Virus record (IMG/VR): IMGVR_UViG_3300045007_000250
Coordinates: 1 to 64,000 of that record
Strand: one strand, 5' to 3'
DNA: 64,000 nucleotides
Source: a virus
Below are positions 1,450-54,001 of the stretch, one piece after another (position 1 is the first letter of the stretch; each line of letters opens with the position of its first letter). The notes beneath the pieces are model-generated. The model was given only the letters and a program-made list of their open reading frames with translations. It was not told where the DNA came from and did not search any database. A program made the position numbers and the translations under genes.

Positions 1450-1542
1450 ATGGGTGACAAGGGCCGGGCAGGTGGCGGTTTGCGGCGATTCCGAACTCTA
1501 CCAAGGGGTCTTTGCGTCTTTGGTGGGATTGAGCGCGGATAG
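1450..1542 (+). pseudogene. Internally deleted relic of an MGKGR-leader gene
   Basis: ATG 1450 reads MGDKGRAGGG; another frame ends TKGSLRLWWD* at 1532; 1518-1538 matches 810-830 at 20/21 nt. Confidence 0.6.
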
Positions 1543-13909: not shown

Positions 13910-15256
13910 ATGACAATGCCAGAAGCGAGAAAAAGACCGAGATGGATGGCCGGAAGGGGCCGCAAGGATATGGCTTCCACAATCCCCCATTCCGTCAGGG
14001 AGCGGGTGACTTCCGAAGAAGCGGGAACCGCGGCGAAGCGTGTCCCCCGTGTCCCGCCGATTGCTTCTGCCAGTACGGACCCGGAGCTTGCGAACCGGTT
14101 TGCGGATTTCCTTATTACTGATATTCAGGATCATCCCGATGAGTACCCCAAATCCGTTGCGGATTTGGGACGGGCCGCGAAGGTCTCCGCCACTTACGTT
14201 CGTTTTCAGGTTGCCAAGCCGGACCTGATTGCTCGTGTACGTGCTGAGACCGGAATGACAATGGAAAGTGATGGTGCGACCGTTACCCTTGATGGTACTC
14301 CGGTAGCACCCCGCACCCCCAGCGGCGAGGGGGTAACGGTGAAAAAGGATGGAGCACGCCCCGATACGTGGCGGGTGCGTCCTATGTCCTCGTCAACGGA
14401 CTCCACGGTGGACCACGACCCCAATTTTTTCCACTATCCGCCGGGTTTCAAGGAGCGTGTTCGGGCCATTCTTGCCGCCGATCTAAACTTGTGGTTTTAC
14501 GGAGAAACCGGCACCGGCAAGTCAGAAGGCTTTGAGCGTATCTGCGAAGAGGATTCGCGCAAGGTAGTCAAGGCGTCCTGCAACGGGGAATCGTCGGTGG
14601 ACGACGTGCTTGGACATTTTATCCTGCGTGGTACGGAAACCGTGTGGGTGGACGGCGCTCTTCCTCTAGCCATGAAGACCGGCGCGGTGCTGATCTGCGA
14701 AGAAGTGGACGCGGCTCCGGCGGAGATCAACCTTGCTCTGCAACGGGCTTTGGAAGTGCGTGTTGGACGTAAACGGCATTTCCTGAATCCGCGCAACGGG
14801 GAGGAAGTTGAAGCGCAGCCGGGCTTCCTGATCGCCGCGACGGCCAACACCAGTGGCGGCGGGGACTACTCCGGTATCTATGCCGGAACGCAGACGCAGA
14901 ATGCGGCCTTCCGAGATCGTTTCGTGTTTATTCAGGTGACGTACCCGGATGAGCCTTCTGAGATCAAGATTCTACAACATCGGGTGAAGGATTTTCCCTT
15001 TACGATTGCACAAAAAGCAGTGCGTCTCGCCAACTACGCCCGTAACGCAATGAAAAACGGGCAAACCTTCACTCCGGTTTCAACACGCTCCCTACTTGGG
15101 TTTGCGCAGTTGTATATGGCTTTCACCACCGGTGGTATTGGGGAGCGTACTTCCTTGCGTGACGCCTTGAATGCCACGATCTTTCACAAGGCGGCTTCCC
15201 CGTCCGATTCCAAGGCCCTCTCCGAGATGGCGCAAAAACTCTTTGGCACCTTCTGA
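13910..15256 (+). CDS. MoxR/CobS/CbbQ-family AAA+ ATPase (start may be 13970)
   Basis: GETGTGKS Walker A, ICEEVD Walker B, ATAN sensor 1, AFRDRF Arg finger, STRSL. Confidence 0.9.
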   Translation: MTMPEARKRPRWMAGRGRKDMASTIPHSVRERVTSEEAGTAAKRVPRVPPIASASTDPELANRFADFLITDIQDHPDEYPKSVADLGRAAKVSATYVRFQVAKPDLIARVRAETGMTMESDGATVTLDGTPVAPRTPSGEGVTVKKDGARPDTWRVRPMSSSTDSTVDHDPNFFHYPPGFKERVRAILAADLNLWFYGETGTGKSEGFERICEEDSRKVVKASCNGESSVDDVLGHFILRGTETVWVDGALPLAMKTGAVLICEEVDAAPAEINLALQRALEVRVGRKRHFLNPRNGEEVEAQPGFLIAATANTSGGGDYSGIYAGTQTQNAAFRDRFVFIQVTYPDEPSEIKILQHRVKDFPFTIAQKAVRLANYARNAMKNGQTFTPVSTRSLLGFAQLYMAFTTGGIGERTSLRDALNATIFHKAASPSDSKALSEMAQKLFGTF

Positions 15257-15262
15257 AAATAC

Positions 15263-15291
15263 TTGACAAGTCTTTTGCGCCGTGTTAGGTT
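15263..15291 (+). promoter_or_regulatory. sigma70 promoter
   Basis: TTGACA-17-TAGGTT. Confidence 0.7.
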
Positions 15292-15326
15292 ATACTTGAC
15301 GTGGCGCTTTGGTTCAGGGAGTGCCC

Positions 15327-26963: not shown

Positions 26964-27725
26964 ATGGACGTGATGGCACAAGCAAAGACGGTCTTGGGGA
27001 CCGCCAAGAAGATTGTGGTGTTGACCGGAGCGGGGATTTCCGTTGAAAGCGGTATCCCCGCCTTTCGCACCGATGCCGACGCCTTGTGGTCGAAGTTTGA
27101 CATGGGCAAGGCCACGCTTTCCTATTTTCTCCATAACCCGGAAGGGTTTTGGAAGGCTCTTGGCCCGTTGGCGGGGAAGTTCATGGGCGCGAAGCCCAAT
27201 GCTGCACATGCGGCTTTGGCCGGTTTGGAGCAGACCGGGCGCTTGAAGGCACTTATCACGCAGAACATTGACGGTCTTCATCAAGAGGCCGGGAGCAAGC
27301 GCGTGATCGAATTTCATGGCAATGCCCGGCGCTTGGTCTGCTTGAAATGCGGCAAGGCGTACTCCGTGGCGGAGATACTTGCCGTGCATGACCCGGAAAA
27401 TGAGACCATCGTTCCGGCGTGTGAGTGTGGACAAATCCTGAAACCGGATGCCACCCTTTTCGGTGAATCAATACCCCCGGATGCGCTCAAGGCTGCGCTC
27501 AAGGCGGTGCGGGGAATGGTGGACGCCATGCTGATTGTCGGTACATCCGGTTCCATTCAACCGGCAAACCAGCTTCCTCAGATCGCCAAAGAGCGCGGTG
27601 TCAAAGTGATCGAAGTCAATCCTTCCCCCACTCCGTACACTCAGCACCGGATTACGGATATTTTTGTGAAGGGGGCTGCGGGGATGGTGCTGCCGCAAAT
27701 TTTGGGGGGAAAATTATGTCAGTAA
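26964..27725 (+). CDS. cobB: Sirtuin NAD-dependent protein deacylase
   Basis: VLTGAGISVESGIP, ITQNIDGLH, HG, CLKC/CECG, VGTSG, EVNP. Confidence 0.93.
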   Translation: MDVMAQAKTVLGTAKKIVVLTGAGISVESGIPAFRTDADALWSKFDMGKATLSYFLHNPEGFWKALGPLAGKFMGAKPNAAHAALAGLEQTGRLKALITQNIDGLHQEAGSKRVIEFHGNARRLVCLKCGKAYSVAEILAVHDPENETIVPACECGQILKPDATLFGESIPPDALKAALKAVRGMVDAMLIVGTSGSIQPANQLPQIAKERGVKVIEVNPSPTPYTQHRITDIFVKGAAGMVLPQILGGKLCQ

Positions 27726-27922
27726 TTGCTACGAAACCGTGTTTTGATTTTGCGGGTGGTCCTGATGCGGGGATTTTGCCTTGTCAAACGGACGGGGCTT
27801 TTTCCGGCAAGGTAGAGTGCCTTGAATTACTTGAGGGCGGGTGTTGGTCCAAGTGTGTGATGGGCAAGCTGCACCCGCTTTACGAGGATTGGAAGTCGTC
27901 AAAGAAAGCGGTGTCAAAGTGA
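27716..27922 (+). CDS. Small Cys-rich hypothetical protein
   Basis: Overlaps both neighbours. Confidence 0.5.
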   Translation: MSVIATKPCFDFAGGPDAGILPCQTDGAFSGKVECLELLEGGCWSKCVMGKLHPLYEDWKSSKKAVSK

Positions 27923-29193
27923 GCGAAAAGATCAACGCGAAGTACGGGCCGGGCACACTTGTTCGGCTCGGTGAGCAGGTGCTTGGGCACCGGATTTCCA
28001 CTGGTATCTTCGACTTGGACCTTGCCCTTGGCGGCGGGTGGCGTGGCCCTTTCGATGAGATTTGGGGTGGGCGTTCCACCGGAAAAAGCACGGTGGCGGC
28101 ACATACGGTCCATGAGGCTCAACAGATTTGCCGGTACGACGGTTTGCTTCTCGGTGATCCGAAGGTGGAAGGAAATTCCCCCTTGCCGTTGGTGCCGACA
28201 TGGACCGACCCGAAGGGTGGTCTGCATTCGGGGCCGGATACGGACACGGATGAGTTCAAGAAAGCCGCCTACGAAGTGAAGAAGGTCAAGGTCAAGGACG
28301 AAGAGGGGAAAGAGACCGGTGAAGTGCAGGAAGTCACCGTATTGCGCAAGGGGTGGGTGCAGCATCGGGTACAGGAGCCGCTTCGTTGCACCGTGGTCAA
28401 CGTGGAGCAGGCGGTGGACCCGGATTGGTACATTCACTGCGGGGCTGACCGTGACTTGACCAATCTTTTGAACGTGACCACGACGGAGCACGTTGTTGAC
28501 CTGATTGACGTGCTGATTCGGGAACAGACCGCCGATTTTGTGGTGCTGGATTCCATCGCGTCCATGTCTCCTCTGTGGGAGCAGGAGAACACGGCGGAGA
28601 AAAAGGCTCCTCCTAAAAACGCCGAATTGCTCAACCGCGCCCTGCGCTGTTGGCTTGCCGCTATCGTGGCTCGGCAAGGCGCGACCGTCCTTCCCCGCAT
28701 CCTGTTGGTCAACCAGGTGCGTTCCAAGATCAACCTGCCCTATCCCAACATGAATCCCGATGTAAAGACTGCCGGATTGGGGCAGGACTTTGCCTCTGTC
28801 TCCGAAGTGAAGTTAGAGCCGGGAAAGCATGACAAGTCCGATTTTCTGTCCCCGGAAGACGGCGGTTTGTCAATTCTCAACCGCACCAACTTCAAGGTGA
28901 CGAAAAACAAGACCTACCCCCCTCTTGGTTATGGTCAGTTCATCACTTGCCTGATTGGGCACGACGGGTATTCACAGGGCGAGATCATGCAGCTTCGCTC
29001 GGTGTTCGAGACGGCGCGGCGGTACAACGTCATTCAGACCGTGAAAGACAAGTGGTTTCTCGGTGGCTTGGAGTTCCGCACGCAGAAGGCGGTGGCGGAG
29101 CATCTTCGGGAACATCCTGCTGATTTTCGCGCCTTGTGGCGGGTGCTGGTTCCCCTTGTCACTGCGGCGCGGATTGGTCGGAAAGTCGCATGA
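27919..29193 (+). CDS. recA: RecA-like recombinase with insertion
   Basis: STGIFDLDLALGGG, EIWGGRSTGKST, VVLDSIA, VNQVR, KNKT. Confidence 0.9.
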   Translation: MSEKINAKYGPGTLVRLGEQVLGHRISTGIFDLDLALGGGWRGPFDEIWGGRSTGKSTVAAHTVHEAQQICRYDGLLLGDPKVEGNSPLPLVPTWTDPKGGLHSGPDTDTDEFKKAAYEVKKVKVKDEEGKETGEVQEVTVLRKGWVQHRVQEPLRCTVVNVEQAVDPDWYIHCGADRDLTNLLNVTTTEHVVDLIDVLIREQTADFVVLDSIASMSPLWEQENTAEKKAPPKNAELLNRALRCWLAAIVARQGATVLPRILLVNQVRSKINLPYPNMNPDVKTAGLGQDFASVSEVKLEPGKHDKSDFLSPEDGGLSILNRTNFKVTKNKTYPPLGYGQFITCLIGHDGYSQGEIMQLRSVFETARRYNVIQTVKDKWFLGGLEFRTQKAVAEHLREHPADFRALWRVLVPLVTAARIGRKVA

Positions 29194-29585
29194 AGGCCCT
29201 GGCCGATCATATTCCTAGAAGGGTGGGGAAGAAAGTTGGGCGGGAGTGCGACGTTCCGACGTGGAAAAGGCAGGAGCGGCGGGTTGCGAAGCGGCGCGGG
29301 GCCAAGTTACAACCGAGAAGCGGGGCACACCCTACCCGGAAGGGGGACACTGTTGACTCCGTGGTGGTGATTGAAGCCAAGAGCACTAAGCACGCTTCCA
29401 TCTCAATCACGGTGGGGCATCTTCAAAGGGTGACGGATGCCGCACACGCGGCAGGGGTGTCCCCGGCCATGTCCTACACCTTCGAGAACATGCCGCCGGG
29501 GGTGGACCCGGATTGGGTTTTGATTCCGTTAGGGGTGTTCAACGCTTTGACTGGCACCCCGGAGCCGGGGTTGAAAGAGGGGTGA
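29190..29585 (+). CDS. Hjc-like PD-(D/E)xK resolvase/nuclease
   Basis: QERRVAK, SGA, KGD, IEAKST. Confidence 0.7.
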   Translation: MKALADHIPRRVGKKVGRECDVPTWKRQERRVAKRRGAKLQPRSGAHPTRKGDTVDSVVVIEAKSTKHASISITVGHLQRVTDAAHAAGVSPAMSYTFENMPPGVDPDWVLIPLGVFNALTGTPEPGLKEG

Positions 29586-29593
29586 AAAAAAAG

Positions 29594-29644
29594 TGCAAGC
29601 GATTGCATTTTTCTCTTGACAAGCCAAAAGTGGCGTGTTATATT
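29594..29644 (+). promoter_or_regulatory. Palindromic site plus sigma70 promoter
   Basis: TGCAAGCGATTGCA, 8 bp, TTGACA-17-TATATT. Confidence 0.85.
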
Positions 29645-29695
29645 GTGCCCATGATGACACGGACCACAAACCACGAAACACGAAAGGGCACGACA

Positions 29696-30091
29696 ATGCG
29701 TAACACTCACACCACGAATCCGGCTGCTTCCATCGCTATCGCCATCGCGGTTGTCCGCGCTCGGATGGGTCAGTATCGCGCCACCATCATGCGAAACTTG
29801 GAAAAGGCGGTGAAGGCCGGGAAGTTCTCGCAGAAGGCGGTGGCGGATCGTGCGGAGCGGGCGGTTGAAGTGCTCCGTACCTACTCCATTACCGACACCG
29901 GGCGCAAGATCAACGGGTGGGGTGAGTTGGTTCACGCCTTCACTCTGGAAAATCCGAGAGGCCGTGAGTACGAAGTGCAGGTGCGCGACAACGGGCAGAC
30001 TTCGTGCAACTGCCCGGACTGGATTTACCGGCGTGGCTCTCACGGCGGATTCTGCAAGCACTCTCTTGCGATTTCCGCCTTGGTGTGGTAG
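29696..30091 (+). CDS. SWIM zinc-finger protein
   Basis: SCNCPD...FCKH. Confidence 0.8.
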   Translation: MRNTHTTNPAASIAIAIAVVRARMGQYRATIMRNLEKAVKAGKFSQKAVADRAERAVEVLRTYSITDTGRKINGWGELVHAFTLENPRGREYEVQVRDNGQTSCNCPDWIYRRGSHGGFCKHSLAISALVW

Positions 30092-30104
30092 TTGGTGAAG
30101 ACAC

Positions 30105-30130
30105 GGGCGGGGGTAAAACCCCGCCCTTTT
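30105..30130 (+). terminator. Rho-independent terminator
   Basis: GGGCGGGG-loop-CCCCGCCC then TTTT. Confidence 0.75.
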
Positions 30131-30151
30131 GTGCGTGAAATAGGAGTAAAA

Positions 30152-31135
30152 ATGCGGTGGGTCAGGACCGGCCTCAAGAAGCCGTCCGTTCCGGCGGTAA
30201 AGCCCCTTGGTGCGGCTGAAAAGAAGTCTTCCGTTGTGTCGGGTATTCCCGTCACTCTCCCTCGTCCGTTGGTGCTTCCCGCTTTGATTGAGGCGGTGAA
30301 GGAAGACGACGTGCGGGATGATTCCTACCTTCATGCGTCTTCCCTTGAGGATTACTGCCCGCGTATGCAGGTGATCCTTCATGTGTTCGGGTTGCGGGTG
30401 TCCAAGCCGGAGCTTTCGTTGAACCTGAAATGGACGATGGAGCTTGGCAAGATGATTCACACCACCCTGCAAAACCGCTTCCTTGGGCGGCGGGGGGTGT
30501 TGGTCGGGAAGTGGAAGTGCCTTGCGTGCGAGCATCGCGTTGGCCGGGATATGCCGAATGAGTGGGTACGAATGCCGGACCCTGGCGAATGCCCGGCTTT
30601 GTCCACTTTCAGTGGTCGGGAACGTCCGCACCTTTGGGTGCATGATGAATGCCACGCGGTTGATGCAGAGCTTGGGATTGGTGGGGACATTGACGGCGGG
30701 ATTCGACACTCCAACGGGGAGATCGTCGGCTTGGAGATCAAGAGCATTTCTGCGGACGGGCACAATCGTCTTCGTGGGGTGAAGGCGGACCATATTGTGC
30801 AAGCCAACGTCTATATGATGCTCTTTGGGCTTCGACAACAGGTTTTTGTTTATACATCGAAGGGTTGGCATGATGAAAAAGAGGCGACCGTGCGTGACGC
30901 GGCTGGGGGTTGGCGCAACGGTCCTTTCTATGAAGTTTCGTTGAAGCGCGATGAGCGGGTGATTGCCGACTTCGTGCTCAAACGCCGGTCGGAACAAACG
31001 GCGCGTGCGGATATGGCGCGAAGCGGTGGGGAGTGTTACCCACCGCGGTTGGAGAGGGAGTGCGCTTCGGAATTTACAGGTCGGGCCAAGGCTTGCCCGG
31101 TGAAAGACCTTTGTTTTTCTCTGGCGGCTGAGTGA
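30152..31135 (+). CDS. Cas4-like PD-(D/E)xK exonuclease
   Basis: YCPR, G..IH, GDIDG, LEIKS, QANVYM, C-terminal Cys cluster. Confidence 0.8.
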   Translation: MRWVRTGLKKPSVPAVKPLGAAEKKSSVVSGIPVTLPRPLVLPALIEAVKEDDVRDDSYLHASSLEDYCPRMQVILHVFGLRVSKPELSLNLKWTMELGKMIHTTLQNRFLGRRGVLVGKWKCLACEHRVGRDMPNEWVRMPDPGECPALSTFSGRERPHLWVHDECHAVDAELGIGGDIDGGIRHSNGEIVGLEIKSISADGHNRLRGVKADHIVQANVYMMLFGLRQQVFVYTSKGWHDEKEATVRDAAGGWRNGPFYEVSLKRDERVIADFVLKRRSEQTARADMARSGGECYPPRLERECASEFTGRAKACPVKDLCFSLAAE

Positions 31136-31824
31136 TGGAGAGACCCGTACCGAAGCCGGATGGCTTTGTTCATCCGACATGGGCTGTTGGCCTTGACTTG
31201 AGCTTGGATTCCGCCGGTGTGGTGGTTCTTGGCGATGGGCTGGTGCAGCATCACGAAGCCTTGCAGTATGCCCCTGTGTCCGCAGAGATGACCCGCACGA
31301 AGTCCGGTAAGAGCCAGTCCCTTACGTTGCGGCAGAAGGCGGCGCGATTGGCTTTCGTCTGTGATGGGGTGTGCCGAATCATGTTGGATGCCGGTACTCC
31401 GCACGCCGTCATTGAGAACTACGCCTTTTCACGGGGCGGGGCTTCCGCGTCCGTGACCGGGTTGGCCGAAGTGTCCGGGGCGGTGCGGGTTGCTCTTTTC
31501 AAGATGGGGGTTGTCCCCCTGGTTGTGGAAGTTTCCGTGGCGCGGGCTTTTGTCTGCGGGAAGGGGAATGCGACCAAGGAAGACACCATTGCCGTGCTTC
31601 AAGGCGCGCAGTATGGAAAGCAGCAGTTTGGAACGGAAGATGAGTACGATGCAATGGCCTTGGCGCTGATTCTCTACTATCTTCGTAATCCGGGGAAGCG
31701 CGAGGGTTTGTCCATGAAGCAGGTGTTGACTCTCTCCCGGTGGAGTGACCGGGTGGATCGGGTGACGGGGGTGGTTGTGCCGTCAAAGTTCAAAAAAGTG
31801 CAACTGCTTGCACAGAAGCCTTGA
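31135..31824 (+). CDS. ruvC: RuvC-like Holliday junction resolvase
   Basis: VGLDLSL, AVIENY, GKGNATKE, DEYDA. Confidence 0.8.
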   Translation: MERPVPKPDGFVHPTWAVGLDLSLDSAGVVVLGDGLVQHHEALQYAPVSAEMTRTKSGKSQSLTLRQKAARLAFVCDGVCRIMLDAGTPHAVIENYAFSRGGASASVTGLAEVSGAVRVALFKMGVVPLVVEVSVARAFVCGKGNATKEDTIAVLQGAQYGKQQFGTEDEYDAMALALILYYLRNPGKREGLSMKQVLTLSRWSDRVDRVTGVVVPSKFKKVQLLAQKP

Positions 31825-31849
31825 CATTCCAAAAGCGGCGTGTTAGATT
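31799..31849 (+). promoter_or_regulatory. Palindromic site plus sigma70 promoter
   Basis: TGCAACTGCTTGCA, 8 bp, TTGACA-17-TAGATT. Confidence 0.8.
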
Positions 31850-31891
31850 TTTCTATAGGGCTTAGTACCAGTTTGAGAAGGGGAAACGACA

Positions 31892-32113
31892 ATGGCTTTG
31901 ACGATTCGAGTAGTCAGGGAAATGGACCCGTGGGACGCTTTCTTGGAAGAGTCGGGGTTTCTGATGGATGATCCTACCGTTCGCGTTCGCGGCAAGGGTG
32001 ACGTTTTGGACATGCTCAAACAATACACTGACTTCTTGGAGAAGAAGCGCACGGAAGCCGGGGCGTGTCCGGTGTGTGGGTGGCGCTTCCGCAAGAAGGA
32101 GGAGGGTGACTGA
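31892..32113 (+). CDS. Small hypothetical protein (CPVC)
   Basis: AAGGGG RBS after promoter. Confidence 0.6.
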   Translation: MALTIRVVREMDPWDAFLEESGFLMDDPTVRVRGKGDVLDMLKQYTDFLEKKRTEAGACPVCGWRFRKKEEGD

Positions 32114-32859
32114 TGGGACGCAAGCCTTTCATGGAAGGGAGCAACGCGGAGATCACTTTGGCTCCCGAAGCCGTAGCATCTCTCCGCACGGAAGCGGCTC
32201 GCCTGGCGTGTGTGGTGGAAGAGACCTACTTTGACCTTGGACACGTCCTCTTGGACATCGCCCGGTCCACCTGCTACAAGGCGTGGGGCTTCAAGGACTT
32301 CGACACCTACGTTGAGAAGGAGTTGTCTTTTCAGCGTCGGAAGGCGTACTACCTCATACTCATTTATGACCAAGCGACGGAGCTTGGCTTGACGATGGAA
32401 GACCTTGCCGGGATCGGGTGGAGCAAGGCCAAGGAAATTCTCGCCTACGTTCATACGCGGGCTGACTTTGACGTGTGGGCGGCGAGGGCCAGAAAGATGA
32501 GCCTGCGGGAACTGATTGACGCCATCCGAATCGCCCGCGGGGTCGGTCCGAAGCCGGAGCACCCCATTTCGGAGCATCCCGTCACCGGTGAAACTCTGCA
32601 CACCATGACGTTCGCCCTCACCGATGGGCAGTACGCCAACGTGATGCTGGCGATGGAGACGGCAAAGCGAATCGGCAAGACGGACAAGGATTCGCACGCC
32701 TTCGACCTGATTTGCCTTGACTTCGCCTCTCACAATGCGGCAACCTCTGACTTGGCGGTGAAGCTGGCTCAGTGGTTCGTGACCACGCCGGACTTGGGGG
32801 ATCGGATTGCGGCGGCGGTGAACGCTGGCGTGCTTGAGGAAGTGCCGCCGGGGAGCTAG
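32113..32859 (+). CDS. Hypothetical helical protein, possibly DNA-binding
   Basis: GFKDFDTYVEKELSFQRRKAYYLI; GGAGG RBS. Confidence 0.65.
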   Translation: MGRKPFMEGSNAEITLAPEAVASLRTEAARLACVVEETYFDLGHVLLDIARSTCYKAWGFKDFDTYVEKELSFQRRKAYYLILIYDQATELGLTMEDLAGIGWSKAKEILAYVHTRADFDVWAARARKMSLRELIDAIRIARGVGPKPEHPISEHPVTGETLHTMTFALTDGQYANVMLAMETAKRIGKTDKDSHAFDLICLDFASHNAATSDLAVKLAQWFVTTPDLGDRIAAAVNAGVLEEVPPGS

Positions 32860-33170: not shown

Positions 33171-34244
33171 ATGGCCGGAAAAGGACGTGCAAGCGGAGCA
33201 GCGGGTGGTGGCGGTGGTCCGACCCGCGAGCAGATTGAAGAAAAAGAGCGGGCGGCAGCGCAGATCGCCGAAGAGCAGCGTGCTCGTGAAGAGTTGATGC
33301 GTCGGCAAGAGGCCGAAGCCAGAGCGCGGGCGCAGGCTGCGGCGCAAGCGGCGCAAGCGGATCGGGCTTTCCAGCAAGCCTACACTCGTTTCGTTTCGCA
33401 TGAAACCATTACGGGCGCGGCGCGTGATCGTGGTGTACCCCCCGAATTGCGAAAACAGTTCGTGGGGAACGTCCGTGGGATGCGCGATCAGGTGATGAAG
33501 GAAAAACCCGCGAGCATCATTGCAAAATTCCGGGCCGATGGGCATACGGTGGACGCTCATGGTGTGTCGGATCGGCGGTTGCGGCAGGCGCTAACCGAAG
33601 GCGGGATCAAGCCCATTCGTGGTGTCACCGCTGCGGAACAGTTGGCGGCTATCTCCGGTATTGCGGGGGTTGGTTTGCGTGGGTGGAATTTTACCATTTC
33701 GGGAGCGGGGGACTCTCTTCTTGTGAGCGGCAAGGGTCCGAGTGGCGGGAGCGTGAGCTATGCCATCTCGAAGGTGTGGAACGCGGAGGCGGGACGTGCC
33801 ACTCCCATGCTCGGTTATGGCGGCTTTTTTCCCGGACAGCAGCGCGGCGCGGGTGTGAGTTATTCCGCTATGCCGCGTATGTTTATCATGGCGCGGGCTT
33901 CTGGCATTCACGGGTTGGGCTTTCTCGCTGGTACTGGTGGTAACATGACCGGGGCGGTTGCTTGGCCTTTGATGGGCGCTCGCTTTTTGAATCCTACAGA
34001 GGCGCGTGGCGCAATGGAATACATGGCGCGGGCCACGGGGAATCGCCAGTGGTTGCGGTTGCGCGATCCGCGTGACATGATTGGAAAGGATCGGCTGGTG
34101 CGTGAGTGGAAACAGCACGCTCGCAATCTTCCGTCAATGCCGGAGATGGGGCTGAGTTTGCTTGGTCCGCAAGCGCGTGTGGACGGGAAGTATTTGAACA
34201 AGTCAACTCTCGAATCGGCGTATCGCATGATTCGTAGGATGTAG
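33171..34244 (+). CDS. MAGKGR-leader protein with coiled coil and C-terminal GNAT-like domain
   Basis: MAGKGRASGAAGGGGG; GQQRGAGV resembles GNAT motif A, then ARASGIHGLGFLA...GAVAWPLMG. Confidence 0.7.
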   Translation: MAGKGRASGAAGGGGGPTREQIEEKERAAAQIAEEQRAREELMRRQEAEARARAQAAAQAAQADRAFQQAYTRFVSHETITGAARDRGVPPELRKQFVGNVRGMRDQVMKEKPASIIAKFRADGHTVDAHGVSDRRLRQALTEGGIKPIRGVTAAEQLAAISGIAGVGLRGWNFTISGAGDSLLVSGKGPSGGSVSYAISKVWNAEAGRATPMLGYGGFFPGQQRGAGVSYSAMPRMFIMARASGIHGLGFLAGTGGNMTGAVAWPLMGARFLNPTEARGAMEYMARATGNRQWLRLRDPRDMIGKDRLVREWKQHARNLPSMPEMGLSLLGPQARVDGKYLNKSTLESAYRMIRRM

Positions 34245-34254
34245 GGGAGAAAAG

Positions 34255-34461
34255 ATGGCTCCGAAAAATGGCGAAGTGATGCCGTGGAATCTTTCCGGGT
34301 TGAAACGGGGAAAGCCGGAAAAACCGCGTGGTATTTCTCCCGATGCCGCGGACACACTCATTCAGAATCCGCGGGATTTGCTGAATGACTCGAATCCGGG
34401 GATCAGGAAGGCCGCACAGCGGGCCGTGGAGCTTGCGGATCGGGTCAAGAAGGGGAAATAG
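34255..34461 (+). CDS. Small basic hypothetical protein
   Basis: GGGGAG RBS; packed between neighbours. Confidence 0.6.
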   Translation: MAPKNGEVMPWNLSGLKRGKPEKPRGISPDAADTLIQNPRDLLNDSNPGIRKAAQRAVELADRVKKGK

Positions 34462-34464
34462 TGT

Positions 34465-35670
34465 GTGGGTTTCGACATAAACCAAAAACGTGATGCTGAG
34501 TATCGTCACACCTTTGCAGCCCGCGACTACGACTATTTACGAAATTGTAAAACCTGCCCGTTGAAAGAGCTTTGCGGTGGGTGGAGTGTCTGGAATGATG
34601 CTCGGTGGTGTGTTGGACCCGGAGAAGTGTGCGTTGGCGGGGAGTCCGGTAAGTGGGTGCATGGTTGCCGGGCTATCTGTTCCCGTTCCCCGGAGAAGGT
34701 GAGTTACCTGGCTACTCTCTTGGGTCAGGATCATTGCTTTCTCAATCCAGAATACAACCCTGAAAGCCCGGATGTGTGGAAGCGCGTGCAGTACCTTCCG
34801 CGGCTCTCCATCGTTGGGGAGCATCCGTGGGTGTCTTGGGAGTACGATTGGCCGGACGTTGGGTTTCAGGTGAACGCCCATGTAGAAGGGATTTACCAAG
34901 ACCTCTACACCATTTCTTTGAAACATCTCTATTACCCGGATCGGGATTCGTGGTCCCCTCAGAAGGATGTACGGAAGCGTTTTCAGATACCCAAAGATTC
35001 AGCAGTGGCGATCACCACCACGACCCACGATTTTCATTTGGATCGTCTCTGTGAGGACTTGGATTTGTGGGCGGATGAGATGGTGGAGTTTGAGGGGGTG
35101 GACTTCATCATTGCTCCGAATCTTTCCGTGTACGACAACTACCCGCGTCTGGACAACCTTTTTCAGATCAAGCGCAAGTGGATCATGCTGGAAAAGCTGC
35201 AACGCCGCGGGGCGCTGGTGCTTCCCGACGTTTGCTTTGTAACTTCTGGCGATTTCAAGAATCAGGTGGCGTGGATGCGGGACAATCACTGTACCTGCAT
35301 GATGATGAATTTTCAGGTGCAGGCGGTGACGACTACGACCCCGCAATGGCGTGCTCAGTTGAAGAACGCTCTCATGGTCCGCGACTTCTTGGGGTGGCCG
35401 GTGCAAATGCTTGCATACGGAGCCACGGGTGGGGACCGTATGGTGGAGATTGCCAAGCACTATCCCACCACGACGTTCCTTGACGCCAAGAGCTTCCGGC
35501 TGGCGGAGTTCCACCACGATCTGTTCGGGGGGACGGACAAGACGAAGCTGGTGAAGGTGCAGTTTCGTGAGAACTGTGCCGCGATGATTGAGCGCGTGCG
35601 GAAGGCGAAGAAAGGATTTGCGCTCGGCGACGACCTGTGCGATAATGCGACAAACGGTGAGGATGAGTGA
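34465..35670 (+). CDS. DUF4417-like protein with N-terminal Cys cluster
   Basis: FIIAPNLSVYDNYPR...LQRRGALVLPDV resembles the DUF4417 core; N-terminal CKTCPLKELCGG plus further Cys. Confidence 0.65.
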   Translation: MGFDINQKRDAEYRHTFAARDYDYLRNCKTCPLKELCGGWSVWNDARWCVGPGEVCVGGESGKWVHGCRAICSRSPEKVSYLATLLGQDHCFLNPEYNPESPDVWKRVQYLPRLSIVGEHPWVSWEYDWPDVGFQVNAHVEGIYQDLYTISLKHLYYPDRDSWSPQKDVRKRFQIPKDSAVAITTTTHDFHLDRLCEDLDLWADEMVEFEGVDFIIAPNLSVYDNYPRLDNLFQIKRKWIMLEKLQRRGALVLPDVCFVTSGDFKNQVAWMRDNHCTCMMMNFQVQAVTTTTPQWRAQLKNALMVRDFLGWPVQMLAYGATGGDRMVEIAKHYPTTTFLDAKSFRLAEFHHDLFGGTDKTKLVKVQFRENCAAMIERVRKAKKGFALGDDLCDNATNGEDE

Positions 35671-37088
35671 TGCCCGCTATTCTGGACCGCTGTGTAGCAC
35701 ACCTTCAAGCCCGCGGGGTAAGCACGTCTTCGTCCTACGCCATTTGCACGTCTTCTCTGCAACGCGCTGGCAAACTTCCCCGCGGAAAGTCCAAGAAAGA
35801 GCTTGAGGTTGAGTTCGGCGAGTGGTCCAAACGGGTACTGTTGCCTTCCGATTTTACTCTTTCCATGCAGATGATTTGGGAGCATTTTGCTCCCGGTGAC
35901 GTGAATCTCTTGAAGGCTCTTCGCAAGGTATCGGTTCTGGATGAGGATTACTCCGATCAGACCGATCCCGTGAAGCGCAAGAGGGAGTTGGCTCGGAGGA
36001 AGCGCATTCTTGGCGAGGCGCGGTTGCACTCCAAGAACATCTCCATGAATCCGAAGGCGCTGGTGCGTATCGGGGATCATCCGGTGTGGTATGGTACGGT
36101 GGCGATCCATGAGGCGCAACATGCGGTGTACGGTTTTGGGGAGCACGAAGCAACCCGCGGGGAACAGCGGTGGCTTGGGAAGCTCTTTGCGGAGTATTCC
36201 TTGGATTTCGACAAACCGGCCATGATGCTCACGATGAGGGCCGCGGCAGTGGCTCAGGCGCAGAGGGAGAAGGACGTGCATCATGCGCACCGGGCCAAGG
36301 ACTTTCACTTCTTGAACTCGGTGGGCTTCACTGCCCGTGCTGCTCGCAGGATTCTTGCCATTGGCCGGGCGATGGAGAAGTACCGGAAGTGGCATGTTCA
36401 ACAGGAAGATGATGCTGCGAAGGATTATTACGACTTCATGGAAGGCGATCTTACGTGGATCGAAAGGACCGTGGACGCCGATCTTGAGGAAGCCTTCGGC
36501 GATTTGATTGAAAAGACCTTTTTTCCCGTTGTGCATGGGGTGGAGAGGTTGCTTGGCTCCGGTGCGGGCGGGTACGCGGACGCGGTGGACTCCAAGGGGG
36601 CGCGTGGCGGGCGGAATCCTTACATGGGAAGCCCGGCGGAGCGGCGTATTTCCACTGGTGGCGATGTGCCCGTGTCATCTGGTGTGTCGTCTCCAAGCCC
36701 TCCCTCCACTGTGCGGAATCCGTATGACGACCGGTACGATTACATGGTGACGGCGGACACGCCTACACCGTGGACTACGGTTGCGGGCATGATGGAGCGA
36801 TACATCAATCGGTCCATCACTCGGCGTGTGGGAAAGGAACTTCGTGGGCCTTTGGGCGTGGTTCCTGCCTTGCGTCGTGCCGGATGGGATGCCAAGAATC
36901 TTCCTGCTGAATGGAAGGAGAAACGCCTTGCTTCTCTGCGCGAATGCTTGCCTTCGTTGAAAACACAGGGGCTTTTTGATGAGGACGGGGAAGTGACGGA
37001 CGCCCATCTTCTTTGCCTGCTCCATGCGTGGACCCCGGTGCCCCACTTGATCTTTGACGACGAAGCCCTAGACGTGGTTCTCGTCTGA
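35670..37088 (+). CDS. Hypothetical protein with HExxH metallopeptidase-like motif
   Basis: MPAILDRCV...YAIC N terminus; AIHEAQH...EHEA. Confidence 0.6.
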   Translation: MPAILDRCVAHLQARGVSTSSSYAICTSSLQRAGKLPRGKSKKELEVEFGEWSKRVLLPSDFTLSMQMIWEHFAPGDVNLLKALRKVSVLDEDYSDQTDPVKRKRELARRKRILGEARLHSKNISMNPKALVRIGDHPVWYGTVAIHEAQHAVYGFGEHEATRGEQRWLGKLFAEYSLDFDKPAMMLTMRAAAVAQAQREKDVHHAHRAKDFHFLNSVGFTARAARRILAIGRAMEKYRKWHVQQEDDAAKDYYDFMEGDLTWIERTVDADLEEAFGDLIEKTFFPVVHGVERLLGSGAGGYADAVDSKGARGGRNPYMGSPAERRISTGGDVPVSSGVSSPSPPSTVRNPYDDRYDYMVTADTPTPWTTVAGMMERYINRSITRRVGKELRGPLGVVPALRRAGWDAKNLPAEWKEKRLASLRECLPSLKTQGLFDEDGEVTDAHLLCLLHAWTPVPHLIFDDEALDVVLV

Positions 37089-37160
37089 TCCCACAATTAG
37101 TAGTTGCATATTCCTCTTTTGGCGTGTTATGATTTCGGCGGATGTTTTTGAGGATGCATC

Positions 37161-38141
37161 ATGCCGAAGAAAAAGGTTGTCAATGTTTCTGAGCCAAGGA
37201 CGGAAGCCCCGGCTGTTCCGGTCGAAAAGAAGAGTCGCTTGTCTCGCCTTCCATTTCGGGGACGCATCGCCGCCCGTCCTGTTCCCGAAGAGCTTGGCGA
37301 ACCTGGGACAGCGCATAAGGATACTGCGTGGCTTGACGAGGGTTTCCTTCCCCCCGATTCTCTGGCGAGTACGCCGGAATCCATGAAGCTGCCCGGCACC
37401 TTGGCCGACATTTCCTTGGTGAAGCTCAGGCCGAACACATGGAATCCGAACAGGATGACCAACAAGACGTTTGATTTGTTGGTGCGCCGGATGCGTGAGG
37501 CGGGGTGCTTGCAGCCGATTCGTGTGTGGCTTGACCCCGCGGATGGCATGTACGAGATTGTGGACGGGTTTCACCGATTCAAAGCCGCTGGCATCTTGGG
37601 GTGGGAGACCATTCCCGCGCTGGTGTTTCCTGAAAAGTGGGACGATCCCGATTTGCGGGTGTTCACCGGCATGACGCTCAATAACGTCCACGGACAGAAC
37701 GATCCTGTGGAGTTTTTGAAGCTCTACAACCAGTTGCTTCCGAAGTACCCGGACAAAGAGTTGCAAGACCTCATGGGCTTTGCGGAGCGAACCAAGTGGA
37801 AGATTCTTACCAAGGGCATCATGGAGGGACTGCCAAAGGGGATGAGGAAGGCGTTTGGTGAGCGGGTGAAGGACGCCACTGCGGATGAGTTGGGCGGCAT
37901 CCTGCAAGAGTTGATGGCGCACTACGGCAATGATCTGCGTTTCAATTTCATGGTCTTCACGCTGGACGGCGTGGAGAATGTGTGGATTCGGTGTCTTCCC
38001 GAAACAATGCAAGGGATTGCACAACTCGCGGAGAAATGCCGGGAGAGCGGTGTGGACATAAACTATCCTCTCATGGATGGACTCACTCATGCGCTCAACA
38101 GCTTTACCGCGGAGCCGGATAAGGAAACTGCCAGAGCATGA
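37161..38141 (+). CDS. ParB/Sulfiredoxin N-terminal domain protein
   Basis: LRPNTWNPNRM, QPIRV, EIVDGFHRFKA, NNVHG. Confidence 0.85.
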   Translation: MPKKKVVNVSEPRTEAPAVPVEKKSRLSRLPFRGRIAARPVPEELGEPGTAHKDTAWLDEGFLPPDSLASTPESMKLPGTLADISLVKLRPNTWNPNRMTNKTFDLLVRRMREAGCLQPIRVWLDPADGMYEIVDGFHRFKAAGILGWETIPALVFPEKWDDPDLRVFTGMTLNNVHGQNDPVEFLKLYNQLLPKYPDKELQDLMGFAERTKWKILTKGIMEGLPKGMRKAFGERVKDATADELGGILQELMAHYGNDLRFNFMVFTLDGVENVWIRCLPETMQGIAQLAEKCRESGVDINYPLMDGLTHALNSFTAEPDKETARA

Positions 38142-38917
38142 GTACGCGACCGCAAGTGCGAAGATCGAAGCAGTCAAAAAAGCCGGTGCCGAAGCAGGCG
38201 GTGACGCGGCTTCAAGACCTGCCCATTTACAATGTGCTCCTTGAAAAATTGCTCTCCGGTGTTTCTTGCAATCAGTTGGCGGGGTGGATCAAGGGGCAGG
38301 GGTTTTTTCCCGACGTGAATACCGAAGCTCTGCGAAAGGCGCTTGACCGTCTTCGTCGTGCCGAGCAGAGGGCGCATCCCCCGTTGGCTCCGACGTTGAG
38401 TAATCCCGTTCCGCAGCCTGTCACCGATGACGGAGCCGTGGAGATCAAGGAGACCAAACTTCTTCCACCGGAGATTGCGGCTTTGGAAGAGTTGGCGATG
38501 TTGCAACAGGACCGTATCAACCTGCTCCACGATAATGAAAGGAAGATCAAACACCTTTTCCCGCAAGGAAGGGGGGAAGTTGCTGAACTGCGTGCGATAC
38601 TACACACCCTTCTGGACAAGAAGCGAGAGCTTGGCACGCCGGGGTACGGTGGTCCGCAGCAACCCGCGCCGGAGCGTGGTGGTGATGTGAACCTGACCCT
38701 CCATGTTGGGCAACTCACCCAACAGACCATGACTGTGTTGGGAGACCCCGGATCGCGGCGGCGGGTGCTGGATGCGTTGCGGGCGTTGGGCACTAAGGGG
38801 GACTTGGACAGGCTGCTTTTGAAGAAGCGTCTTGGAGACAATGTTTTGTCCGAAGCCGGGCTGCTTGAGGACGGCGAAAAGAAAGAACCTGTAACGGTAG
38901 TGGTGGCTGGTCCATGA
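38138..38917 (+). CDS. Putative terminase small subunit
   Basis: N-terminal HTH-like region and helical body; directly overlaps terL. Confidence 0.6.
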   Translation: MSTRPQVRRSKQSKKPVPKQAVTRLQDLPIYNVLLEKLLSGVSCNQLAGWIKGQGFFPDVNTEALRKALDRLRRAEQRAHPPLAPTLSNPVPQPVTDDGAVEIKETKLLPPEIAALEELAMLQQDRINLLHDNERKIKHLFPQGRGEVAELRAILHTLLDKKRELGTPGYGGPQQPAPERGGDVNLTLHVGQLTQQTMTVLGDPGSRRRVLDALRALGTKGDLDRLLLKKRLGDNVLSEAGLLEDGEKKEPVTVVVAGP

Positions 38918-40752
38918 GCCCCCCTGAGACTCCTCTTCCGCCGCAACTCCTACCCGAAGAGGCGGAGATGCTTTCTCGCCTTTCGCCGGAAGAGCGGGAA
39001 GTTCTGCAAATGATCCTCTTGGGCAATGAGGATTTGCTGACCGCTATCTACGATCAGGAGTATGAAGAATCCCCGGTGGATGCTAAGACCTTTTTCACCG
39101 ATCCTTATTACTTGGGTGTAACCGGTGGAGACCTCTATCCGCAGGTGTTGGACGACCTTTGTGAGATTTTCAACCCGGAGAGGAATTATCTTGAAGTAAT
39201 CCTTGGCGGAGCAATCGGATGGGGAAAGAGCACTGAAGTTGAATTTGGTTTGCTTCGGTGCCTTTATGAGATTGCTTGCTTGCGTAATCCCCAGCGGTCC
39301 TTTGGTCTCATGGAAGGCTCGTCTATCGTCATCATCAACCTTTCGGTCACGGAGCAACAGGCGCGGAAGGCCATTTTTTCCGGTCTTCTGGCGAAGGTGC
39401 GGCAGTCTCCGTTTTTCAAGAACAACTTTGCCTATGATCCTACCGTAGTCTCGGAGCTTCGTTTCCCCAAAGGCATCACGGTGTTCCCCGGAGCTTCCAC
39501 GGACAATTCCATTCTCGGTTTGAACGTCGTGGCCGGAGCGGTGGATGAAACCAACTTCATGCCCATCATGGAAGTACGGAAGACTGCTGGGGGAAGGTCC
39601 GCGGGCGTGTATGATAAGGCGGCGTCCTTGTATAACGCCATGATTCGTCGCATGAAGAGCCGCTTCCTTCGACATGGACGTTTGCCCGGCAAGATGTTTT
39701 CTCTTTCCAGTGCGCAGTACCCCAACGATTTTATTGAGCGGAAGGTGCGGCAGGCGCTTTCCGACACGACCATTTTTGCCCGCCGATATGCCCTTTGGGA
39801 CGTGAAGCGTGAACAGTTCTCTACGCAGACTTTTCCGGTGGAAGTCGGCACGGACCTTTCCGGTTCCCGTGTGCTTTACCCCGGAGATCAGCCGACCGGG
39901 AAAGTGATTGACGTTCCGGTGGACTTCCGACCTGATTTTGAAAAGGACTGTGACGGCTCTCTTCGTGACATTGCCGGGGTCAGCACGCTTACCGTGGATC
40001 AGTTCATCAAGGACTTCGGGAAGGTGGTGGAATGCGTCAATGAGAAGCGCCGCCACGCCTTCACTAAGGAGTTCACCACCCTTGAGGATGGGGCTAAACT
40101 TCGGCTTTCTACTCTGCTCAAGGAGAATCCTCAGAATCCGCGGTGGAAGCCGGTGCTCATTCACAATCCTGAATCCTTGCGAGTGGTTCACATTGACCCC
40201 TCGCTAACCCGCGACGCCACCGGCATTGCCGTGGGGCACATTTCCGATATGGTGCGGGTGGTGCGGCGGCAGGATGATGGGACGGAGAAGGTGGAGTGGG
40301 CACCCTTCATCGTCTATGACTTGCTGTTGCGTATTGTTCCACCGCGGCACCGGGAGATTCAGTACGACCGAATCCGCGACATTATTTATCGGCTGCAAGA
40401 GGTTGGGATGCGGATTGGGTTTGTGTCTATGGATAGCTTTCAAACGGCGGAGATGAGGCAACAGCTTACGCGGCGGCGCATTCCCAACGATGTGCTTTCG
40501 ATTGACCGCACCACCGAACCATACGAAATTCTCAAGGCGGCTTTGTATGAGAAGCGGGTGGACCTGTACCCCTACCCCGTTGCGATGAAGGAGCTTCGCC
40601 AGTTGGAGCATGACCGACTCAAGGGAAAGATTGACCACCCGGAGCATGGGTCCAAAGACGTGTCCGACGCGATGGCGGGCGTGGCTTATATTCTCACTTT
40701 GCACGCGGCTCGTTTCTATAAGCCCAAGGTGAGCGTAAGCACATTCGGTTGA
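38914..40752 (+). CDS. terL: Terminase large subunit
   Basis: GGAIGWGKST Walker A, AVDE Walker B, VHIDPS and DHP..GSKDVSDA nuclease motifs. Confidence 0.92.
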   Translation: MSPPETPLPPQLLPEEAEMLSRLSPEEREVLQMILLGNEDLLTAIYDQEYEESPVDAKTFFTDPYYLGVTGGDLYPQVLDDLCEIFNPERNYLEVILGGAIGWGKSTEVEFGLLRCLYEIACLRNPQRSFGLMEGSSIVIINLSVTEQQARKAIFSGLLAKVRQSPFFKNNFAYDPTVVSELRFPKGITVFPGASTDNSILGLNVVAGAVDETNFMPIMEVRKTAGGRSAGVYDKAASLYNAMIRRMKSRFLRHGRLPGKMFSLSSAQYPNDFIERKVRQALSDTTIFARRYALWDVKREQFSTQTFPVEVGTDLSGSRVLYPGDQPTGKVIDVPVDFRPDFEKDCDGSLRDIAGVSTLTVDQFIKDFGKVVECVNEKRRHAFTKEFTTLEDGAKLRLSTLLKENPQNPRWKPVLIHNPESLRVVHIDPSLTRDATGIAVGHISDMVRVVRRQDDGTEKVEWAPFIVYDLLLRIVPPRHREIQYDRIRDIIYRLQEVGMRIGFVSMDSFQTAEMRQQLTRRRIPNDVLSIDRTTEPYEILKAALYEKRVDLYPYPVAMKELRQLEHDRLKGKIDHPEHGSKDVSDAMAGVAYILTLHAARFYKPKVSVSTFG

Positions 40753-50063: not shown

Positions 50064-50412
50064 TCCGAAGTATCAGTTTCACCAGAAACAGACCGCGTGG
50101 GCATTGAACATTTCCACGTCTCGTTTGACTTTCTTGCGTCGTGTCGGGAAGTTTCCTGCCACCGGTCGGGATGGGACGGGTTTTTTGTGGTCCGCCGCGG
50201 CGATTATGGAGTGGGCGGGCCGAAAGAAGGGTGAACAGGCGGACGCTTACCGTAGTATGGTGTCCGAGCGATTGCGGGCTTTGATGTATGATGGCAAAAC
50301 GTCGGCGTCTCTACACGCACCGGGGGGACGCCCCAAGAGAGAGGAAGAAACAAATGCTGCTGACGGGTACGGAGATTCGCAAGGCGATGGAGGAAGGGCG
50401 GATCATCGTTGA
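50056..50412 (+). CDS. Excisionase/AlpA-like winged HTH protein
   Basis: TAWALNISTSRL..LRRVGKFP...W....I..W. Confidence 0.55.
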   Translation: MSDPKYQFHQKQTAWALNISTSRLTFLRRVGKFPATGRDGTGFLWSAAAIMEWAGRKKGEQADAYRSMVSERLRALMYDGKTSASLHAPGGRPKREEETNAADGYGDSQGDGGRADHR

Positions 50413-51019
50413 TCCTCTCACCCCGGAGCATGTTGGGCCAAACTCGGTGGACTTGACGTTGGCCGACGTGCTAATTCTCTATGAGCTTGCGCTGGATGAC
50501 GGGATCATTCGACAGCAGGCGACCCCGGATGGGAAGCAGTTGGTGTTGCCGATTTTCTTGGACACGGCCAATGCGCAACACCCATCCTTGTCCTTGAAAA
50601 TTCCTGAATCCGGTCTCCTACTTCGCCCCGGCAAATTCTACTTGGCGGCGTGCCGGGAGAGGGTGCAGGCGGATGAGTACGTGGCGGAGATTCAGTCGCG
50701 CTCTTCCGTTACCCGTCTTGGCTTGATTGTTCATGGCGGGGTGGGGGAGATGGGCGCGACGGGAACGTGGACCTTTGGGCTTCAACCGTTGGTGCCCGTG
50801 TACGTTCGCCCTGGTTTGCGTATCTGCAAAATGGTGTTTCACAAGGCGGAAGCCGGTGGGACGCTCTATCGGGGCAAGTACCTCAATGAAACTGGTGTGG
50901 GCGCTTCCAAGATCGGTTTGGACGTGAAAAAGCGTCCCCCTTTGGAAGTTGTGTCGCCCGCCCCGGAGTCTGGCAGTTCCGAACCGGCGAAGCGGAAGGA
51001 GGCGGAAAAAAATTCTTGA
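50354..51019 (+). CDS. dcd: dCTP deaminase / trimeric dUTPase-family protein (atypical active site)
   Basis: MLLTGTEI, GPNSVDLTL, SRSSVTRLGL, YRGKY. Confidence 0.75.
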   Translation: MLLTGTEIRKAMEEGRIIVDPLTPEHVGPNSVDLTLADVLILYELALDDGIIRQQATPDGKQLVLPIFLDTANAQHPSLSLKIPESGLLLRPGKFYLAACRERVQADEYVAEIQSRSSVTRLGLIVHGGVGEMGATGTWTFGLQPLVPVYVRPGLRICKMVFHKAEAGGTLYRGKYLNETGVGASKIGLDVKKRPPLEVVSPAPESGSSEPAKRKEAEKNS

Positions 51020-53834: not shown

Positions 53835-54001
53835 AAGAAGGCGATTGCAAAGTTGTCGAAATTGCCGCACAGTATGTGTGGTAAGGGATTCGTCCGGGCT
53901 TTGTGACTTGTGCCGCGGAGTGCCCGTTGCTTCCACGGTTCGCAAGGTGGGTTTCGACAATGAAAGTGTGGTGACACGCACCTTGTTTGGTGGGAGAGAA
54001 G

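Follow-up and report, generated by a model that had tools for sequence, protein, structure and literature searches.

Positions 33171–40752 of the window analysed here, which is the first 64 kb of the linear IMG/VR virus record IMGVR_UViG_3300045007_000250 (86,920 bp; CheckV completeness estimate 82%), hold a cluster of seven co-directional genes. These encode a protein with a glycine-rich N-terminal tag, a small basic open reading frame (ORF), a Cys-rich enzyme of the DUF4417 superfamily (hereafter the window enzyme), an HExxH protein, a ParB/Srx-type protein, a putative small terminase subunit (TerS) and the large terminase subunit (TerL). An earlier note on this DNA had described this arrangement, and all seven ORFs were found on the plus strand where it had placed them. 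The tag, its recurrence in this genome and in other phages, and its pairing with DUF4417 are the subject of this report; coordinates are collected in Table 1.

Table 1. Tagged genes and the pre-terminase cluster, in window positions (pI, isoelectric point; RBS, ribosome-binding site; TGT, tRNA-guanine transglycosylase).
Feature	Position	Strand	Remarks
Tagged protein cut by the contig start	1..300	+	Frame opens ..KGRSAGGVGG; first two codons missing
Tagged basic protein, 174 aa	300..824	+	Starts MGKGRSTGGAGGG; pI 11.1, 12% Arg, no Pfam/PHROG family
Tagged basic protein, 194 aa	852..1436	+	Starts MGKGRSGGGMGGG; pI 11.5, no family
30-aa relic or mini-ORF	1450..1542	+	Starts MGDKGRAGGG
Tagged basic protein, 208 aa	1561..2187	+	Starts MGKGRAGGGMGGAGG; pI 11.6, 16% Arg; RBS-like aggagg upstream
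Tagged cargo protein, 357 aa	33171..34244	+	Starts MAGKGRASGAAGGGGG; pI 10.8, no Pfam/PHROG family
Small basic ORF, 68 aa	34255..34461	+	
DUF4417-superfamily enzyme, 401 aa	34465..35670	+	Cys-rich residues 1–122, predicted TGT-like (beta/alpha)8 barrel 123–397
Cysteine cluster C28, C31, C37, C49, C56, C68, C72	34546..34680	+	Invariant in the close family
HExxH protein, 473 aa	35667..37088	+	HEAQH at residues 148–152
ParB/Srx-type N-terminal domain protein, 326 aa	37161..38141	+	PF02195, phrog_26387; DGFHR at residue 135
Putative TerS, 259 aa	38138..38917	+	Assigned by position and 4-nt overlap with TerL only
TerL, 612 aa	38914..40752	+	Weak phrog_9 match plus motifs

The glycine-rich tag

The leader pattern was defined as a start followed by [AG]?G[KR]G[KR] and at least four Gly within the following 10 residues. 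Counted genome-wide (86.9 kb), it heads four ORFs, against a mean and a maximum of 0 in 100 genomes simulated with a first-order Markov model, while the contig start truncates a fifth tagged copy and a sixth survives as a 30-aa relic. The genes at 300, 852 and 1561 share the start MGKGR(S/A)xGG, and since codons differ between the tag copies, conservation and selection operate at the peptide level. Beyond ~25 residues the tagged proteins are unrelated to each other; the four that were scored have a pI of 10.8–11.6 and contain 11–16% Arg, compared with a genome background of 6.4%, and none of the four belongs to a Pfam or PHROG family. The MAGKGR start is a real tag and not a product of chance.

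The cargo protein of the cluster has a sole full-length homolog, 78% identical and located on a 105-kb contig, its other match being a 254-aa cluster encoded by the window itself; identity as a GNAT protein was considered and rejected, as no family search supported it. The 68-aa ORF that follows may be an immunity or adaptor protein. Also rejected, as a tag, was the MAGRGRKD start at 13946, which is not Gly-rich. It belongs to an AAA_5 (MoxR/CbbQ-like) ATPase that is paired, over positions 13946–17279, with a CobT-like VWA protein; both are present in one of the related loci described below (L002), and the VWA protein also in another (L003).

Kinship and predicted fold of the enzyme

Against PF14386, the window enzyme itself scores 20.3 bits (E 4e-4), which lies under the Pfam cut-off of 28.9 and covers only profile positions 57–117. 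Among its 70 aligned homologs, however, 48 match PF14386 (best E 2.6e-17) and none matches ParB. The profile of the close family detects 10 canonical DUF4417 proteins in a 10-sequence set, with E values from 1e-15 to 1e-4: L5 gp1 and the proteins of Piro94, Steamy, Bromden, Tourach, MissD (MissD_0042), phiNJ2, IPP14 (gp25), Javan394 and ChisanaKitsune. Detection between the profiles is mutual, and motifs around D189, S221/P227, Q246/P254, D263 and G319 are common to both groups, taking the forms LDD/THD, PDFS/PNxS..P, Q..G..V.P and YGG when the window enzyme is compared with L5 gp1, the Streptococcus phage A25-like gp26 and the ParB-DUF4417 fusions (phrog_940). The pre-terminase position and the adjacent tagged gene are further shared characters. 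On these sequence comparisons the window enzyme is a member of the DUF4417 superfamily, and the DUF4417 likeness suspected in the earlier note is upheld by the homologs, the profile detection and the common motifs. The window enzyme differs from the canonical proteins in being ~170 aa longer, in its Cys-rich N-domain and extra barrel strands, and in its sub-cut-off Pfam score; moreover, ParB is a separate gene in the window, unlike in the phrog_940 fusions, which are annotated 'nuclease'.

An exhaustive profile search with the family of the window enzyme recovered 419 metagenomic clusters at E ≤1e-3. A tblastn search of INPHARED with the window enzyme gave no match, its close family has no relative in GTDB genomes, the P0055 search for its relatives returned one weak match, and a search for related loci with alignment A4 found none. 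L5 gp1 is matched by 511 INPHARED records. DUF4417 proteins are currently annotated as 'nuclease' or 'hypothetical', and the literature search returned no function for DUF4417, which appears in tables or as a fusion partner of ParB, such fusions being enriched in phages (10.1101/2025.10.10.680097). The published gene table of A25 lists gp26 (DUF4417), then gp27, then TerS. A literature search on 'MGGRG' returned nothing relevant, and no paper was found that describes the enzyme-plus-tag pairing.

The AlphaFold2 model of the window enzyme, built on the 70-row homolog alignment, reached a predicted local distance difference test score (pLDDT) of 92.3 and a predicted template-modelling score (pTM) of 0.91; it superseded a first model from six sequences (pLDDT 59), which had returned generic TIM-barrel matches only. 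In a VIA-align search against 48,161 chains, the best matches were ArcTGT (1iq8; Z 17.3, 253 aa aligned), QTRT2 (6fv5; Z 15.8), bacterial TGT (3unt; Z 14.7) and DpdA (7ui4; Z 14.0), with Cap10 ranked sixth (Z 13.9), while generic TIM barrels scored Z ≤14.0 over ~190 aligned residues. After re-alignment of Foldseek's 1,000 best-ranked PDB chains, the best 50 of the 1,000 entries were all TGT (Z 15.5–17.3, model residues 123–397), and the BFVD matches were phage 'queuine tRNA-ribosyltransferases'. This high-confidence model predicts a TGT-type (beta/alpha)8 barrel preceded by a Cys-rich N-domain, in keeping with the TGT/DpdA-type barrel that had been suspected from the letters, and the seven-Cys cluster is presumed to be a metal site (Zn or Fe-S). 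An Atlas search with the N-domain gave no usable match, and the enzyme profile found nothing significant among PDB sequences.

The conserved residues D189, D213, S221, N225, P227, D263, Q284, G319, R325 and D340 lie just past predicted beta-strands, a placement of conserved polar residues that suggests catalysis; several of them are common to canonical DUF4417. The likeness of the last two strands to TGT, also claimed earlier, holds as a pattern of G-x-G ... hydrophobic-hydrophobic-Asp, with MLAYG319..TTFLD340AKSF in the window enzyme and YLMGVG..DMFD264CVMPTR in E. coli Tgt, whose D264 is the nucleophile. The catalytic Asp pair of TGT is D102 and D280 in Z. mobilis numbering. By motif and predicted secondary structure only, its putative positional analogues in the window enzyme are D189 (invariant, after strand 180–184) and D340 (after strand 336–340).

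Pairing of tag and enzyme in other phages, and neighbouring genes

Seventeen DUF4417 loci could be scored for a tag on a neighbouring gene (the L005/L019 locus was left out, its contig stopping at the enzyme gene), and an N-terminal MGGRG, MGRGG or variant was found in 14 of them. This bears out the suggestion in the earlier note that DUF4417 is accompanied by small MGGRG proteins near ParB and terminase genes in other phages. In the closest locus (L001), the enzyme is 60% identical and gene order is the same, with a MAKGRSTGGG protein at the cargo position whose body has no detectable likeness to the window cargo, and a 77-aa ORF at the position of the 68-aa ORF, again without detectable similarity between the two. 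In L002 (enzyme 33% identical), six MGRGG genes are interleaved with the enzyme, a homolog of the HExxH protein and ParB; L003 has two tagged genes, and in L020 and L021 a basic protein starting MGNDGG or MGSEGG, respectively, lies directly between enzyme and ParB. The gene abutting canonical DUF4417 starts MGGRG in L5, Piro94, Steamy, Bromden (gp126), Tourach (gp118), MissD, phiNJ2 and a fecal phage contig. Bxb1, a Fromanvirus like L5, is missing the gp1–gp3 block and has neither DUF4417 nor a genuine tagged ORF. The L5 and MissD loci contain neither ParB nor the HExxH protein, which reduces the minimal conserved unit to the enzyme and a tagged gene.

In several of these phages the tag does not coincide with the annotated gene start. 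The L5 tag (L006, Z18946) belongs to an ORF at 1081–1419 starting MGGRGSKGGPG, out of frame with the annotated gp2 (1305–2084). The frame upstream of L5 gp2 is Gly-rich too, and in Piro94 and Steamy gp2 is a single ORF starting MGGRG, a comparison of sequences that suggests a frameshift or sequencing error near gp2 in the 1993 record of L5. In phiNJ2 (L015, 3139–3549), an upstream ATG gives the tag start MGGRGASSGMSEKQ, as in MissD, and the annotation of phiNJ2_0027 (start MSEKQ) probably begins 9 codons downstream of the true start. IPP14 gp26 (L012 4123–4869) and Javan394_0021 (L016 3255–4070) carry the GGRGA motif after an N-terminal extension of ~65 aa. This extension may be a propeptide whose removal frees the glycine; alternatively, the start may have been mis-called.

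Several tagged proteins look effector-like in their matches and annotations. A tagged protein of L002 matches the DRAT ADP-ribosyltransferase family above the cut-off (27.2 bits), Piro94 gp2 is annotated as a 'VIP2-like toxin' and followed by an 'immunity protein', Steamy gp2 is annotated as a 'peptidase' and contains HELGH, and L5 gp2 matches DUF3626 (SopF family). A termite-gut phage with DUF4417 also lists a VIP2 toxin.

The HExxH protein is kept beside the enzyme in L001, L002 and L003. Across seven sequences from four lineages, H148, E149, H152, E159 and E166 are invariant, so that the HExxH motif and a further downstream ligand are both conserved in the homologs, within a core of ~170 aa; the protein is likely a minimal zincin peptidase. 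An LHSKxIALNP-type stretch precedes the motif and, judging from its sequence, could be a substrate-binding edge strand. No sequence match was obtained in Pfam, PHROG, NCBIfam or PDB, and the structure leads from the Atlas (IrrE/M78 and SprT-like zincins) are weak, with TM scores of 0.39–0.52 on a poor model. At approximately residues 212–235 (window 36300–36370), the stretch FLNSVGFTARAARRIL resembles a helix motif of the ubiquitin-associated (UBA) type, the alignment with the UBA domain of NUB1 being non-significant (E 2.1).

Downstream, the ParB protein scores 38.5 bits against PF02195 (cut-off 26.3; E 1.2e-9) and matches phrog_26387 at E 4.5e-42, while the putative TerS has no family match in the Pfam and PHROG searches. 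The phrog_9 match of TerL has an E value of 9e-5; Walker A (GWGKST at 102), Walker B (AVDE at 209) and nuclease-type Asp motifs at residues 426, 505 and 582 were read from its sequence, and a PDB sequence search gave nothing significant. Upstream of the module, a 248-aa protein (32113–32859; phrog_17202, E 5e-30) is conserved in L001, L005 and L002, in the last within a 681-aa protein, and a family of Borrelia partitioning proteins is faintly similar to it (E 0.01).

The sequence of the record is present in seven lake-water metagenome DNA runs, with no RNA run among the sequencing runs listed for it. Nearly all of its genes lie on the plus strand, and it encodes a family A DNA polymerase, a DnaB-like helicase, a primase, a RecA-like protein, SIR2, a class II ribonucleotide reductase, and portal, capsid and tail genes. 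The SIR2-family protein (26964–27725; PF02146, E 1.3e-43) lies upstream of the RecA-like gene (27841–29193); an N6/N4 DNA methyltransferase (11899–13080) and a dCTP deaminase-like gene (50288–51019) are also present in the window. The 946-aa portal protein (53987–56827) carries Phage_portal at residues 618–798 and a LAGLIDADG domain at 498–544. Its L021 homolog aligns with residues 67–283 and 621–798 only, and because the homolog skips the intervening stretch of ~340 residues, this looks like an intein or homing-endonuclease insertion. Long minus-strand ORFs at 29474–31180, 31843–32733 and 37068–38177 (296–568 aa) overlap well-supported plus-strand genes (exonuclease, RuvC, ParB) and were taken not as genes but as shadow ORFs of a GC-rich genome.

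Possible action of the enzyme on the tag, and alternatives

In the type IV cyclic oligonucleotide-based antiphage signalling system (CBASS), the QueC-like Cap9 attaches 7-amido-7-deazaguanine to Gly2 of CdnD, a residue that afterwards occupies the active site of Cap10, a TGT-like protein (10.1101/2025.04.06.647259); Gly2 of QatB behaves likewise with QatC (PMC13376578). The DUF4417 loci resemble Cap9/Cap10-CdnD (PDB 9ntn) in combining a predicted TGT-fold protein with a partner whose Gly2, after Met excision, heads a flexible Gly-rich tail (MGKGR.., MAGKGR.., MGRGG.. and MGGRG.., compared with GGSGGSFGSGFDPR at CdnD residues 2–15). The CdnD tail enters the barrel pocket of Cap10, which is itself a structural match of the window enzyme. 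They differ in that no QueC-like ligase, cGAS/DncV-like nucleotidyltransferase (CD-NTase) or effector was found in the window record and that the window enzyme is by sequence DUF4417 and not, like Cap10, PF01702; furthermore, the tags sit on many unrelated proteins, whereas in CBASS the tail is found on one signalling enzyme, and the setting is a phage packaging region instead of a host defence operon. Capsid-delivered effectors (T4 Alt and internal proteins, which bear a capsid-targeting sequence; MuF toxins, PMC3482391, PMC5576092) offer a second likeness, with polymorphic toxin-like cargo encoded beside packaging genes and a constant N-terminus. Here, however, a Gly-rich peptide of ~15 residues, paired with a predicted TGT-fold enzyme, stands where those effectors have the MuF domain or the T4-type targeting peptide, and no Pfam domain, MuF/SPP1 gp7-like or other, was found at the N-termini of the tagged proteins. 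The passages of the 2012 polymorphic-toxin survey that describe MuF-type phage delivery contain no enzyme-tag pairing.

By analogy with these systems, the loci may represent a phage 'tag plus enzyme' module in which the enzyme acts on the Gly tail of polymorphic injected effectors, a proposal that we make tentatively and with somewhat less than even confidence. Its parts carry different weights. Gene neighbourhood, fold and analogy make it rather probable that a DUF4417-family enzyme acts on the tag; for packaging and delivery as the purpose, the balance is about even; a covalent nucleobase or nucleic-acid conjugate as the product seems doubtful. The tail begins with Met and Gly (or Met and Ala-Gly), in most cases followed by a basic residue, and continues as a Gly-rich run of 10–15 residues; methionine excision would expose a flexible glycine N-terminus that the enzyme could take into its barrel pocket and modify or conjugate. 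The likeliest chemistry would be a transglycosylase-type transfer by which a nucleobase or nucleic acid is linked to the N-terminus. The resulting mark might ensure that the tagged proteins accompany packaged DNA on its way into the next host, a step suggested by the location of the genes directly ahead of the terminase and by cargo that resembles injected effectors and DNA-binding proteins. As lineage-specific helpers, the HExxH zincin would act in processing or release, the ParB-type NTPase in DNA or NTP handling. In the most specific form of this scheme, which we regard as distinctly unlikely, the free Gly N-terminus (or a nearby Arg guanidinium) would be the nucleophile in a base exchange, and the effectors would be joined by a glycosyl-amine to phage DNA or a nucleobase and co-injected.

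Several observations weigh against such a module. The contact between enzyme and tag that it supposes is drawn from context, fold and analogy, and a distance of 31 kb separates four of this genome's tagged genes from the enzyme. IPP14 and Javan394, both with a ParB-DUF4417 fusion, have the GGRG(A) motif ~65 residues inside the annotated neighbour, and the ChisanaKitsune locus is ambiguous for the tag. The likeness to TGT/DpdA (PF01702; PDB 1iq8, 1q2r, 7ui4) is at fold level only and does not extend to sequence profiles: hhalign of the family profile against E. coli Tgt finds nothing (probability 0.6%), and the whole record has no PF01702 match at E ≤1. The C-terminal zinc site of TGT (CxCxxC...H) is absent, the only cysteines past residue 300 being C371 and C392, neither in a conserved column, and the seven-Cys domain at the N-terminus takes its place. 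At D340, which we align with the TGT nucleophile, 5 of the 25 family members have N or S; one subgroup thus lacks the putative nucleophile, yet still carries tagged neighbours (L020, L021).

Genes for deazaguanine synthesis are missing as well. No QueC-like ligase (PF06508) was found in the 86.9-kb record, which is 82% complete, and a Cap9-type route is therefore not encoded in it; Pfam scans of 40 window ORFs returned no FolE, QueD, QueE or QueC, a result to be read with the same completeness and with possible supply by the host in mind. The statement in the earlier note that the window lacks folE and queCDE agrees with both searches. With no QueC-like gene, the barrel would itself perform the chemistry, or a host factor would be used, or the enzyme would merely bind the tail, direct action on the tag being ranked likeliest. 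A co-fold of the enzyme (70-row alignment) with residues 2–60 of the protein encoded at 300–824 scored 0.00, a value obtained without controls that speaks neither for nor against contact.

The subgroup without D340 is equally a point in favour of a different but unlikely explanation. Under it, scaffold, portal or terminase would recognise the tag as a signal for capsid targeting or ejection, as happens with Alt and the internal proteins of T4; DUF4417 would receive, chaperone or hold the tail non-covalently, much as Cap10 holds CdnD, and the tag would be trimmed by the zincin, with no nucleic-acid chemistry involved. T4 Alt is packaged via an N-terminal targeting peptide, and cargo of the ADP-ribosyltransferase type, encoded beside packaging genes, suits this explanation too. 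The polar residues conserved across the superfamily after predicted barrel strands suggest catalysis and so speak against a purely binding role, and the minimal loci of L5 and MissD have no zincin that could do the trimming. A quite unlikely possibility starts instead from the structural matches, among which are DpdA and phage queuine tRNA-ribosyltransferase-like proteins: together with ParB, the enzyme would modify phage DNA around packaging, acting in DpdA-like fashion by base exchange or as a type of glycosylase and so allowing escape from restriction, and the tagged proteins would be a separate matter, e.g., DNA-condensing internal proteins. The enrichment of ParB-DUF4417 fusions in phages (10.1101/2025.10.10.680097), with IPP14 and Javan394 as examples, and the occurrence of ParB-DNA methyltransferase fusions in the same genomic niche (phrog_498) are compatible with it. 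It nevertheless leaves unexplained the tagged gene that adjoins the enzyme in 14 of the 17 scorable loci and the joint loss of both in Bxb1, and the deazaguanine synthesis genes were not found in the scans of the record.

We consider it very unlikely that the locus is a toxin-immunity or superinfection-exclusion module, in which tagged toxins would work inside the cell that makes them or on competitors and DUF4417 would activate or neutralise them via the tag, with no link to packaging. The annotated toxin and immunity pair after DUF4417 in Piro94 would fit such a module, as would the small ORF after the cargo in the window and in L001. On the other hand, the genes precede the terminase genes consistently, in lytic-type large phages as well, and a genome can hold up to six tagged genes without paired small ORFs.

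Recognition of DUF4417 together with a constant glycine tag makes a testable system out of two anonymous genes found at the left genome end in L5, D29-like and A25-like phages, and the tag is a potential sequence handle for finding new phage effectors. Should the enzyme mark the tag, the nucleobase-protein conjugation known from CBASS and Qat would extend to the phage side, and the module may explain how ADP-ribosyltransferases and other phage effectors are loaded and delivered. If conjugation by base exchange proved true, it would be new both as a way of coupling proteins to nucleic acids and as a route by which effectors are delivered, and it would be widespread among phages, the L5-like mycobacteriophages among them.

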